From Alphaproteobacteria bacterium (GTDB lineage: Bacteria; Pseudomonadota; Alphaproteobacteria; CAAHEQ01; UBA3637): DNA of 64,000 nt. Of this stretch, positions 59,558 through 61,942 are shown piece by piece. The number at the start of each line of letters is the position of its first letter. The first letter of the stretch is position 1. The notes beneath the pieces were generated by a model. The model worked only from the letters and a program-made list of their open reading frames with translations, was not told where the DNA came from and ran no database searches. Where the stretch lies: contig JAGCYU010000004.1 of the NCBI GenBank assembly GCA_017960645.1, positions 7,152 through 71,151 on the forward strand. Reading direction: 5' to 3'. Position numbers and translations under genes: made by a program.

Positions 59558-60919
59558 ATGCCAGCAAAAAGTATGGATGAAATTGTTTCTTTATGTAAAC
59601 GTCGTGGTTTTGTTTTTCAAGGAAGTGAAGTCTATGGTGGATTAAAAGGGACCTATGACTTTGGACCTTTAGGCGTTGAATTAAAAAAGAATATTCGTCA
59701 AGCTTGGTGGCGTGCGATGGTTTATGAACGTGATGACATAGAGGGGTTGGAATGCGCCCATATTTCTCATCCATTGGTATGGAAATATTCGGGTCATGAA
59801 GCTGGCTTTTTTGATTTATTACAAGACTGTAAAAAGTGCAAAGCGCGTTTGCGTTCGGACCATTTAGTGGATGGAAAATGCCCAAACTGTGGTTCCACGG
59901 ATTTAACTGAGCCACGTCCGTTCATGTTAATGATGAAAACCAATATCGGGCCTGTGGATGATGGGTCCAGCTTTGCATATTTGCGTCCGGAAACGGCTCA
60001 AGGGACATACCTCAACTTTAAGAATGTTGTGGATGCTACCGCTCGTAAGTTACCTTTTGGTATTTGTCAACATGGTAAATCTTTCCGGAATGAAATTACC
60101 CCGCGTAACTTTTTGTTCCGTCAACGTGAGTTTGAACAGGCTGAGATGCAATATTTTGTTCAACCAGGAACAGATGAAGATTGGTGGAAGAAATGGCGTG
60201 AAATTCGGACTGCCTGGTGGGTAGAGCAAGGAATTCCAGCCGAAAAGTTGCGTTTTCATCCGCATGACAAGCTAGCTCACTATGCCAAAATGGCTGGGGA
60301 TATTGAATATGAATTTCCTTGGGGTTTTGATGAGGTAGAGGGTATTCATGATCGCCAAGACTTTGATTTGGGTTCCCATACCAAAAACCAAGACAAATAT
60401 CCTATTCAAGCTAAAGTGCTTAAAAATACAGATTCCACCGTTGAAATGTCCTATACAGATGTGATGGATGGCAATAAAAAATTCATTCCGTTTGTGGTTG
60501 AAACCGCTATGGGACTGGATCGTGCCTTTATTGCTTTAATGATGCAAGCCTATACCGAGGAAACTTTGCCTAATGGTGAAACAAGGTTGGTGTTAAAATT
60601 AAAAAAACACTTGGCGCCTGTCAAGGTAGCTGTGATTCCTTTGAAGCGCAATAATGAACAGATTGTTACTTTGGCGCACCAGATTAAAGAGGATTTATTA
60701 AAAACAGGTATCGGGCGAGTTATGTTGGAAGATTCCGGCAATATCGGTAAGGCCTATCGCCGTCATGATGAAATCGGGACACCAATTTGCATTACTGTGG
60801 ATTTTGAATCTATTGAGCAAAGCCCTGCAACAGTTACTTTGCGTAACCGGGACACTATGGCACAAGAGCGCGTAGCTGTGGCCGATTTGCCGAAGTATTT
60901 GAAAGAATTCTTCTTATAA
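59558..60919 (+). CDS. glyQS: glycyl-tRNA synthetase, dimeric alpha2 (class II, archaeal/eukaryote-like) type
   Basis: 453 aa single-chain GlyRS (YGGLKGTYDFGPLG ... FRNEITPR ... ) with a C-terminal anticodon-binding domain. Confidence 0.9.
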   Translation: MPAKSMDEIVSLCKRRGFVFQGSEVYGGLKGTYDFGPLGVELKKNIRQAWWRAMVYERDDIEGLECAHISHPLVWKYSGHEAGFFDLLQDCKKCKARLRSDHLVDGKCPNCGSTDLTEPRPFMLMMKTNIGPVDDGSSFAYLRPETAQGTYLNFKNVVDATARKLPFGICQHGKSFRNEITPRNFLFRQREFEQAEMQYFVQPGTDEDWWKKWREIRTAWWVEQGIPAEKLRFHPHDKLAHYAKMAGDIEYEFPWGFDEVEGIHDRQDFDLGSHTKNQDKYPIQAKVLKNTDSTVEMSYTDVMDGNKKFIPFVVETAMGLDRAFIALMMQAYTEETLPNGETRLVLKLKKHLAPVKVAVIPLKRNNEQIVTLAHQIKEDLLKTGIGRVMLEDSGNIGKAYRRHDEIGTPICITVDFESIEQSPATVTLRNRDTMAQERVAVADLPKYLKEFFL

Positions 60920-60936
60920 AATTAAGTTTTCTTGAC

Positions 60937-60970
60937 AAACACCGCACAAGGTTTTTGTGCGGTGTTTTTG
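60937..60970 (+). terminator. Rho-independent terminator after glyQS
   Basis: AAACACCGCACAA ggttt TTGTGCGGTGTTT stem-loop followed by a T-run. Confidence 0.75.
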
Positions 60971-60998
60971 TACCTGCTTTGTCTTTAAGACAAAAATC

Positions 60999-61027
60999 TT
61001 GACAAATTTTAACTTTTGTGGTATAAT
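60999..61027 (+). promoter_or_regulatory. perfect consensus sigma70 promoter with extended -10 (TTGACA-17-TGgTATAAT)
   Basis: TTGACA at 60999-61004, TG at 61019-61020 and TATAAT at 61022-61027. An AAGGAG RBS follows at 61044-61049, and the ATG at 61057. Confidence 0.7.
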
Positions 61028-61056
61028 GTTGAACCTGTAAGGGAAAGGAGATTATC

Positions 61057-61323
61057 ATGACAAACGAAGAAAACAGAGCTAAAGAAAGAAAAAAATTATT
61101 AATGTATGCACAATTGTTCCGTTTTGGAAGCTATGCATCTATGGGATTGTCTTTGTTAGGATCGCTTGCTGTTATTAGCGCCGCGATTCATGGTAAATCA
61201 GGTAAAGAGGTAGTGGGATATTTGTTAGGGACTTTTATTGCTACCGCTCTTGCTGAGACTTGTCTTGATGCCAGGTTCTGTATTGCCGCTAAAATAAGAG
61301 GGCATGATAAAGGCATATACTGA
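61057..61323 (+). CDS. small two-TM membrane protein (88 aa)
   Basis: Strong promoter and RBS. Basic N-terminus followed by two hydrophobic helices separated by HGKSGKE. Its stop overlaps the next ATG (TGATG). Confidence 0.55.
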   Translation: MTNEENRAKERKKLLMYAQLFRFGSYASMGLSLLGSLAVISAAIHGKSGKEVVGYLLGTFIATALAETCLDARFCIAAKIRGHDKGIY

Positions 61324-61676
61324 TGCCAAATGGTGAAACGCGTTTGGTGTTAAAGTTGAAAAAACATTTGTCACCTGTTAAAGTGGCTGTAATTCCTTTG
61401 AAGCGCAATAATGAACAGATTGTTACTTTGGCGCACCAGATCAAAGAGGATTTATTAAAAACAGGTATCGGGCGAGTTATGTTGGAAGATTCTGGCAATA
61501 TCGGCAAGGCCTATCGTCGTCATGATGAAATTGGTACCCCAATTTGCATTACTGTGGATTTTGAATCTATTGAGCAAAGCCCTGCAACAGTTACTTTGCG
61601 TAACCGTGACACGATGGCACAGGAACGTGTAGCTGTGGCTGATTTGCCAAAATATTTAAAAGAATTCTTTCTGTAA
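61323..61676 (+). CDS. free-standing paralogue of the GlyRS C-terminal anticodon-binding domain (117 aa)
   Basis: ATG-initiated. About 99% amino-acid identity to GlyQS residues ~338-453, while about a quarter of codons differ synonymously. Translationally coupled to the upstream ORF. Confidence 0.6.
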   Translation: MPNGETRLVLKLKKHLSPVKVAVIPLKRNNEQIVTLAHQIKEDLLKTGIGRVMLEDSGNIGKAYRRHDEIGTPICITVDFESIEQSPATVTLRNRDTMAQERVAVADLPKYLKEFFL

Positions 61677-61696
61677 AAAAATTGTAAGGGATTGAT

Positions 61697-61942
61697 ATGT
61701 CGAAAAAAAATGCAAATAATCGATTGGTTAAGAATTTATATCTTGCCAATAAAATATGTGTAGCTATGGCTTTATTAGCCTGGGTCGGCGCTGCTGTTGG
61801 TTTTACTAAAGGACATGAAAAATCTGCAAAACTAGCTCTTTTAGGTGCGGTTGGTTGTTCAGTTGTTGGTACAGCTTGTGCTTTTAGTGCAGATAGGGCT
61901 GATATTTTAAGGAAAAAACGCAAATGCCAAGGGCGTGGATAA
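61697..61942 (+). CDS. small two-TM membrane protein (81 aa), paralogue of the 61057 ORF
   Basis: Same architecture as the 61057 ORF, with a shared KS.K...G.LLG...A..C pattern. The upstream nonamer TGTAAGGGA is also shared with the 61057 ORF's upstream region. Confidence 0.5.
   Translation: MSKKNANNRLVKNLYLANKICVAMALLAWVGAAVGFTKGHEKSAKLALLGAVGCSVVGTACAFSADRADILRKKRKCQGRG

Follow-up and report, generated by a model that had tools for sequence, protein, structure and literature searches.

A free-standing copy of the glycyl-tRNA synthetase anticodon-binding domain, probably an orphaned gene end, at a variable locus of a gut alphaproteobacterium

Prophages e14 and 21 integrate in the icd gene of E. 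coli and bring with them a replacement 3' end of that gene. [quoted passage not shown] Among aminoacyl-tRNA synthetases (aaRSs), free-standing domains have been described in general, those that bind anticodons among them (PMC5388404), and GluRS2 is a domain-chimeric synthetase whose catalytic and anticodon-binding domains are of different origin (PMC3927822). The locus described here can be compared with each of these systems. It lies in a stretch of 64,000 nucleotides (the window) on a contig from an uncultured rumen/gut alphaproteobacterium, in which glyQS, the gene for glycyl-tRNA synthetase (GlyRS), is followed by a separate open reading frame (ORF), here termed ABD2, that repeats the C-terminal anticodon-binding domain (ABD) of the enzyme and stands between two small ORFs, TM1 and TM2. 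The four products are the NCBI metagenome-assembled genome (MAG) proteins MBP5343656-59 (locus tags J6Y85_01065-75), labelled as a glycine--tRNA ligase (MBP5343656) and three hypothetical proteins, of which MBP5343658 is ABD2. Comparison with related genomes suggests that ABD2 is probably the 3' end of a second glyQS allele, orphaned through recombination at a hypervariable islet which starts at the stop codon of glyQS.

The repeated domain and its surroundings

Self-alignment of the region recovers a collinear, ungapped direct repeat with an offset of 757, the copies of which (ABD1 within glyQS, and ABD2) differ at 32 of 351 coding bases, i.e., 90.9% nucleotide identity. The repeat is real, and its two members are what an earlier note, made from the sequence alone, had taken them to be: the last 116 codons of glyQS with their stop codon, and a nearly collinear copy that starts at an ATG. 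The copy forms an intact ORF of 117 aa. Homology runs from codon 337/338 (more exactly, from the TG of codon 337) to the stop codon, with unrelated flanks; only the ABD coding segment is duplicated, and not the ABD together with a small gene. In GlyRS, the class II catalytic core spans residues 1 to ~336 and the C-terminal HGTP anticodon-binding domain residues 337-453, the nearest solved structure being that of Thermus thermophilus GlyRS (1ATI/1B76). ABD2 aligns with residues 318-438 of 1B76 and covers positions 1-93 of the 94 in the Pfam profile PF03129 (HGTP_anticodon; score 82.2 bits, cutoff 21, E = 3e-23), which makes it a whole-domain member of the class IIa synthetase anticodon-binding domain. 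At the protein level it departs from the GlyRS C-terminus only by A353S and by the replacement of Leu337 (TTG) with the ATG start methionine. It is free of stop codons, frameshifts and lineage-unique amino acid changes, and its in-frame codon usage is on par with that of glyQS.

Inspection of the surrounding DNA shows that the 403-bp spacer between the copies holds only the glyQS terminator, a promoter and TM1. The promoter, which the earlier note had called a perfect consensus, does match the consensus at 12 of 12 positions, carries an extended -10 TG in addition, and is the top-scoring promoter of the region scanned. Likewise, both terminators which were said to frame the unit fold well and are followed by U-runs (Table 1). 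The ATG of ABD2 overlaps the TGA of TM1 (as TGATG), with a weak AAAGG 9 nt upstream. On the basis of these signals the description of ABD2 as an expressed domain paralogue is plausible. In a search of positions 58900-62300, no Rfam element, such as a T-box, was detected at E<=1.

TM1 and TM2 had been described as paralogous genes with two transmembrane segments and a shared upstream nonamer. Both ORFs do exist, each with two hydrophobic segments, and in both codon usage is best in the called frame and level with that of neighboring real genes. Their paralogy, however, finds no support: BLASTP gives no alignment between them at E<=100, and the local alignment score of the DNA 3' of the two ABD copies is 19, as against a shuffle mean of 20.9. 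The nonamer TGTAAGGGA is indeed present upstream of both, and these (61036 and 61683) are its only two occurrences in the 64 kb, against an expectation of 0.39; yet two or more matches were seen in 6 of 100 shuffles, and the coincidence is only weakly unusual. Both ORFs are ORFans, so that their relatedness could be judged from single sequences only and not from family profiles. Among 5.8 billion proteins TM1 and TM2 each retrieve only themselves, and TM1, when scanned exhaustively with HMMER against 1.84 billion cluster representatives, again returned only itself. TM1 has no significant match to a Pfam, PHROG or PADLOC family, and comparison of TM1, ABD2, TM2 and the GGDEF protein encoded further downstream with the phage and defence families of PHROGs and PADLOC yielded nothing significant.

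The arrangement of promoter, TM1, ABD2, TM2 and terminator is found on at least seven contigs from several assemblies and samples, the NCBI MAG included, with the same junctions on every contig that carries it. Metagenome-assembled contigs can be chimeric at conserved sequences, and some short-read contigs do break within this repeat: two short-k Logan contigs begin at 61577, inside a 68-nt stretch identical in both copies, which is what a true repeat does to short-k assemblers. The copies are nonetheless separately resolvable because they differ at 32 positions. An assembly artefact in the form of a mis-joined or mis-resolved repeat, a possibility which the earlier note had held up against its own observation, is very unlikely given the recurrence of the same structure.

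Divergence of the copies and variability of the locus

The phyletic distribution of the second domain was examined at two depths. A scan with one genome per species gathered 80 glyQS loci from related gut/rumen Alphaproteobacteria, and none of the 80 carries a second ABD. The close sisters, collected via a 90% protein cluster, comprise six contigs representing about four lineages (L092/L093; L094; L174/L176/L177; L175), and a second ABD is absent from all six. Their GlyRS proteins are 96-99% identical in amino acid sequence (453-aa cluster members), their catalytic cores are 87-88% identical at the nucleotide level, and they share with the window the upstream genes for a ClpB-like protein, MlaA and MlaC. 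ABD2 is thus confined to one near-clonal species, and is not conserved across several diverged genomes in the manner of a functional free-standing aaRS-domain paralogue. The sister lineages are also neighbors in a literal sense: strain L091, which is nearly identical to the window, and L177 come from the same sample (ERZ28655167), so that the strain of the window and a sister lineage co-occur.

The differences between the copies comprise 30 synonymous and 2 non-synonymous changes (dS 0.54, dN 0.0074, dN/dS 0.014) and are distributed as a mosaic, the center differing from the flanks with a Fisher p of 4e-5. Along the coding segment, nt 1-66, 67-167, 168-213, 214-281 and 282-351 contain 13, 1, 6, 0 and 12 differences between ABD1 and ABD2, respectively, while either copy differs from the sisters by 4-19, 11-17, 4-10, 6-16 and 8-16 in the same segments. 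There are, in other words, two near-identical tracts of 101 and 68 nt that together hold one difference in 169 nt, whereas the other 182 nt are 17% divergent, a value equal to the divergence between sister lineages. Judged from this pattern, the two tracts have evidently been homogenized by recent gene conversion between the copies. ABD1 and ABD2 are mutual nearest relatives overall, but only through these tracts; in the first segment ABD2 has 4 differences from the glyQS of L094 but 13 from ABD1, small counts out of 66 positions. For dating, only the close sisters are informative, as synonymous sites are saturated with respect to the clade A and clade B relatives (pS 0.6-0.8).

Had the copy lain unused in place for as long as the overall dS implies, dozens of replacements would be expected. 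The simplest reading is that the copies are alleles whose divergence took place in functional, full-length genes of separate lineages before they came to lie side by side. In that case the dN/dS would be low because the divergence accumulated within functional genes and was followed by gene conversion, and the scarcity of replacements would say nothing regarding selection on the free ORF. Of relevance here is strain L091, which over 10 kb differs from the window by two bases only, both in ABD2 and 8 nt apart (L091 positions 5156 and 5164, window positions 61478 and 61486). One is a synonymous T>G; the other is an A>G that produces E391G, at a glutamate invariant in 82 of 82 aligned GlyRS sequences. 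This suggests either relaxed constraint on ABD2 or an assembly error.

Block-wise blastn of the window against the sisters places the repeat within a broader pattern of variability. Homology to the four sister loci compared stops at window positions 60919-60928, and at least three mutually unrelated types of islet are found on the 3' side of glyQS: that of the window and two among the sisters, which carry either a 242-249-aa gene on the + strand or a 259-275-aa gene on the - strand, with no Pfam match for these genes save one weak, sub-threshold match to an HD domain. To the question raised earlier of whether the region downstream of glyQS is empty in relatives, the answer is that it holds different sets of genes. 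A hypervariable islet thus adjoins the stop codon of glyQS directly, so that in close relatives a variable region begins precisely at the end of a conserved gene; the homology between the repeat copies ends at the stop codon because this islet starts there. Base composition is not diagnostic in this regard, the G+C of the islet (0.34-0.39) being slightly lower than the 0.40-0.44 seen otherwise.

Table 1. Features of the glyQS locus and its surroundings (window coordinates)
Feature	Coordinates	Strand	Description
Upstream block	55000-59115		conserved with sisters (blastn)
Upstream variable block	59116-59483		variable (blastn); lipoprotein gene that evolves fast (109 aa in the window, 140-181 aa among sisters)
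glyQS block	59484 to ~60921		conserved (blastn); glyQS and its promoter
glyQS	59558..60919	+	alpha2-type glycine--tRNA ligase, 453 aa; Pfam tRNA-synt_2b and HGTP_anticodon
Repeat copy A (ABD1)	60567..60922	+	last 116 glyQS codons, stop and 3 further bases; ungapped self-alignment
Gene-conversion tract 1 (putative)	60635..60735, partner 61392-61492	+	1 difference in 101 nt; sisters differ by 11-17 there
Gene-conversion tract 2 (putative)	60782..60849, partner 61539-61606	+	0 differences in 68 nt; sisters differ by 6-16 there
Variable islet 3' of glyQS	60922..63358		TM1, ABD2, TM2 and GGDEF gene; bounds from blastn blocks; nothing alignable except ABD2 with the 3' end of the sisters' glyQS
Intrinsic terminator of glyQS	60937..60972	+	13-bp stem, then U-run; -21 kcal/mol, z -4.8
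Sigma-70 promoter	60999..61027	+	TTGACA, 17-nt spacer, TATAAT, extended -10 TG; 12/12 against consensus
TM1	61057..61323	+	88-aa ORFan; two hydrophobic segments; AAGGAG ribosome-binding site
ABD2	61323..61676	+	free-standing 117-aa ORF; entire HGTP anticodon-binding domain
Repeat copy B	61324..61679	+	partner of copy A at offset 757
TM2	61697..61942	+	81-aa ORFan; two hydrophobic segments, basic C-terminus; begins 20 nt past the ABD2 stop
Intrinsic terminator closing the TM1-ABD2-TM2 unit	61960..62007	+	-17.2 kcal/mol, z -5.5; U-run after stem
GGDEF gene	62072-63313		413-aa protein; part of the lineage-specific islet
Downstream block	63359 onward		synteny with L175 resumes at mgsA (blastn)

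Several further observations concern the neighborhood of glyQS. Among the sisters, the gene is flanked by two hypervariable islets, the short upstream one being that of the lipoprotein gene; glyQS itself is 85-88% identical to its sister orthologues at the nucleotide level, and the flanking conserved genes are less so (74-80%). The GGDEF protein has no counterpart at the corresponding position in L175 or the other sisters, and its N-terminal ~200 residues are without a Pfam match. In clade B, glyQS is followed by rpsU. The genes just 3' of glyQS-rpsU in the clade-B relative L017 (positions 6800-11600) are found in the window ~25 kb away (31800-36600), and include one for a GyrB/ParE-like protein (89% amino acid identity); the locus has therefore been rearranged on the 3' side of glyQS. 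The promoter of glyQS (TTGACT, 17-nt spacer, TATAAT) has its -10 box inside the loop of a strong 14-bp hairpin that is followed by a T-run (59499-59537). This hairpin resembles a terminator of the upstream gene; the region is conserved at 88-92% in the sisters and at ~75-78% in clade B, and may serve as terminator and promoter in one or contain a regulatory hairpin. Within the catalytic core of GlyRS, residues 90-114 (window 59825-59900) form a four-cysteine, zinc-ribbon-like insertion (CKKCK...CPNCGS), which is kept in both clades and matches Pfam zinc ribbons weakly. Finally, other apparently free-standing ABDs in public protein collections were inspected: those of L082 and L083 are frameshift-split genes in long-read assemblies, and that of L084-L086 is a full-length glyQS with a 100-N scaffold gap, so that all three of the short ABD proteins checked on long contigs are artefacts.

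Origin of the free-standing domain

The explanation favored here, to which we assign a probability of about 0.58, is that ABD2 is a glyQS 3' end which was orphaned when the islet recombined. DNA of a closely related, co-occurring sister lineage would have recombined at the glyQS locus, with one crossover passing through homology and the other being illegitimate. The illegitimate joint would lie at the start of the highly conserved linker between core and ABD (AYTEExLPNGETRxVLKLKKHLAPVKVAVIPLKRNN), and what resulted would be a full glyQS with the 3' fragment of another allele behind it, the downstream module having been replaced or added. The joint would abut the end of TM1 and, by chance, create an ATG overlapping its stop, such that the fragment reads as an intact ORF; later, two short conversion tracts would have homogenized parts of the copies. 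We infer this mechanism of recombination, and that selection acts on the fragment little or not at all, from several strands of evidence: the copies are homologous only over the coding segment between codon 337/338 and the stop, with unrelated flanks; the 80 species and the sisters have a single ABD beside a variable islet; the mosaic of differences, with its unconverted part at between-lineage divergence, points to alleles of separate lineages; E391G in the ABD2 of L091 hints at relaxed constraint; sister lineages in the same sample provide the opportunity; and the same linker appears to be a recurrent exchange point in the glyQS genes of this group (see below).

A number of features weigh against this explanation. 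The fragment comprises exactly one complete, independently folding domain, and comes with an ATG, coupling to TM1, a perfect promoter and no terminator before the end of TM2, a tidiness that a random joint would seldom yield. Further, ABD2 has remained without a stop, a frameshift or a lineage-unique amino acid change. Much the same overall divergence would be expected from a duplication that arose early on the organism's own branch and was retained by selection, the nearness of the first segment to L094 rests on small counts, and the two L091 differences could be assembly errors. No donor lineage with TM1 or TM2 beside glyQS was found, both being ORFans, and a possible extra match upstream of 61324 (15 of 20 positions, one 8-nt gap) falls short of significance (p about 0.06).

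A less likely alternative is that ABD2 is a selected, expressed, free-standing tRNA(Gly) anticodon-binding protein, which would be transcribed together with the two small membrane proteins and coupled to them in translation. Possible roles would include the sequestering or buffering of tRNA(Gly), the modulation of GlyRS, or service as a decoy that draws off something directed at tRNA(Gly) or at the GlyRS ABD. The completeness of the domain, the start codon made at the joint, the location between a consensus promoter and a terminator, and codon usage as good as that of glyQS are all consistent with it, as is the persistence of an intact frame despite 31 differences in the unconverted part, all synonymous but A353S; free-standing aaRS domains, anticodon-binding ones included, have moreover been reported in general (PMC5388404). 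On the other hand, the ORF is present in a single near-clonal species, the three other short ABD proteins checked on long contigs turned out to be artefacts, the low dN/dS is accounted for if full-length genes diverged first and gene conversion followed, and the sole set of polymorphisms seen includes a change at an invariant residue. A narrower version of this idea, in which ABD2 would be a very young recruited synthetase domain, expressed from the strong promoter along with the two small membrane proteins, that acts in trans on tRNA(Gly) or GlyRS, for instance to adjust the supply of Gly-tRNA, while still converting with its parent, is rather doubtful. The second reading offered by the earlier note, insertion of an element carrying its own replacement 3' end, is closer in spirit to the explanation favored here; in its specific form, a site-specific integrative element that entered the 3' part of glyQS and later decayed to a few hundred bases, it is improbable. 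A direct repeat of the 3' end of a target gene with mostly synonymous differences is the classical signature of such elements, the homology does stop at the stop codon and the locus does vary among relatives. Nevertheless, none of the genes called up to 10 kb to either side belongs to an integrase, recombinase or transposase Pfam family, the copies are a mere 403 bp apart, and the sisters display other sets of genes rather than an empty att site; a related element was found nowhere, with TM1 and TM2 being ORFans. The note's principal reading, in-place tandem duplication of a unit of glyQS 3' end plus small membrane-protein gene followed by divergence, fares worse and is most improbable. In its favor, each ABD copy precedes a small ORF with two hydrophobic segments and the nonamer TGTAAGGGA precedes both of these. 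The homology, however, does not extend over the length of such a unit: TM1 and TM2 have no detectable similarity, the DNA downstream of the copies is non-homologous, the terminator and promoter behind ABD1 have no counterpart behind ABD2, and the nonamer is only weakly unusual, with two or more matches in 6% of shuffles. Moreover, outside the tracts the copies are as divergent as sister orthologues.

Domain exchange in glyQS and comparison with known systems

The linker at which ABD2 begins is also where glyQS genes of this group have seemingly been recombined on a deeper timescale. The catalytic core of the window (residues 1-336) is 80-84% identical in amino acid sequence to the clade L002-L008 and about 60% identical to L011-L013 and L016-L019, whereas its ABD is 93-96% identical to the L011-L013/L016-L019 clade; the flanking genes and the glyQS promoter region also ally the window with the L011-L019 clade. 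The same incongruence is seen elsewhere: the ABDs of L003/L005 group with L023, those of L009/L010 with L027, and L004 groups with L017. When sites are bootstrapped, 98-100% of replicates place the ABD with the "wrong" clade, as against 0% for the core. These groupings imply at least three exchanges of glyQS core and ABD within the gut Alphaproteobacteria, each broken at the conserved linker, the same point where ABD2 starts. The mosaic is older than the duplication because all sister lineages share it. The earlier suggestion that glyQS is a recombination hotspot is hence borne out and can be extended, as exchange at the core/ABD linker has recurred in these bacteria.

Should the orphan reading hold, the locus would offer a clean example of an essential and normally stable synthetase gene that, at a recombination hotspot, sheds a domain-sized fragment. 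From intact fragments of this sort, with expression signals already in place, free-standing synthetase domains such as those known elsewhere could be built. The wider mosaic of glyQS may matter more, in that domain-level recombination would shape the enzyme in these organisms, and it raises the question of what drives the spread of one type of catalytic core, e.g., a gut inhibitor. A caution for annotation also follows: a low dN/dS of a duplicated fragment is not proof of function if the copies diverged in different genomes.

Among the described systems, the displacements at Rhs, CDI and T6SS loci share with this one a conserved gene next to a hypervariable region, on the orphan reading the replacement of a resident 3' part and downstream genes by DNA of relatives with an orphan 3' fragment and small genes remaining, the lack of an integrase, and downstream modules that differ among close relatives. 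They differ from it in that the gene here is an essential housekeeping synthetase and not a polymorphic toxin, that the duplicated part is the conserved domain and not a variable toxin tip, and that there is a single orphan rather than an array, followed by small proteins with no known immunity role. The insertions of e14 and phage 21 in icd likewise repeat the 3' end of a housekeeping gene directly, with mostly synonymous differences and homology up to the stop codon. The present locus departs from them in its 403-bp spacer, in having no integrase or identifiable element, and in the alternative gene sets that stand in place of empty sites.

Like the free-standing aaRS-domain paralogues, ABD2 presents one synthetase domain as its own ORF with expression signals. 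The known functional paralogues, however, are conserved across many taxa and have diverged from the parent enzyme, while ABD2 is found in one species and differs by one substitution and the new start methionine (98-99% amino acid identity). As in GluRS2, the full-length glyQS of the window and its relatives joins the core of one clade with the ABD of another, with the breakpoint at the linker, which is a property of the full-length gene rather than of the orphan copy; unlike GluRS2, a class I GluRS, the enzyme is a class II GlyRS and the exchange recurs among close gut lineages. With these differences, the chimeric GluRS2 would be the nearest published parallel to the glyQS mosaic (PMC3927822). 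The orphaning of a 3' end at a variable locus, for its part, is a known kind of event, of which this locus would be a new instance that strikes an essential synthetase gene.

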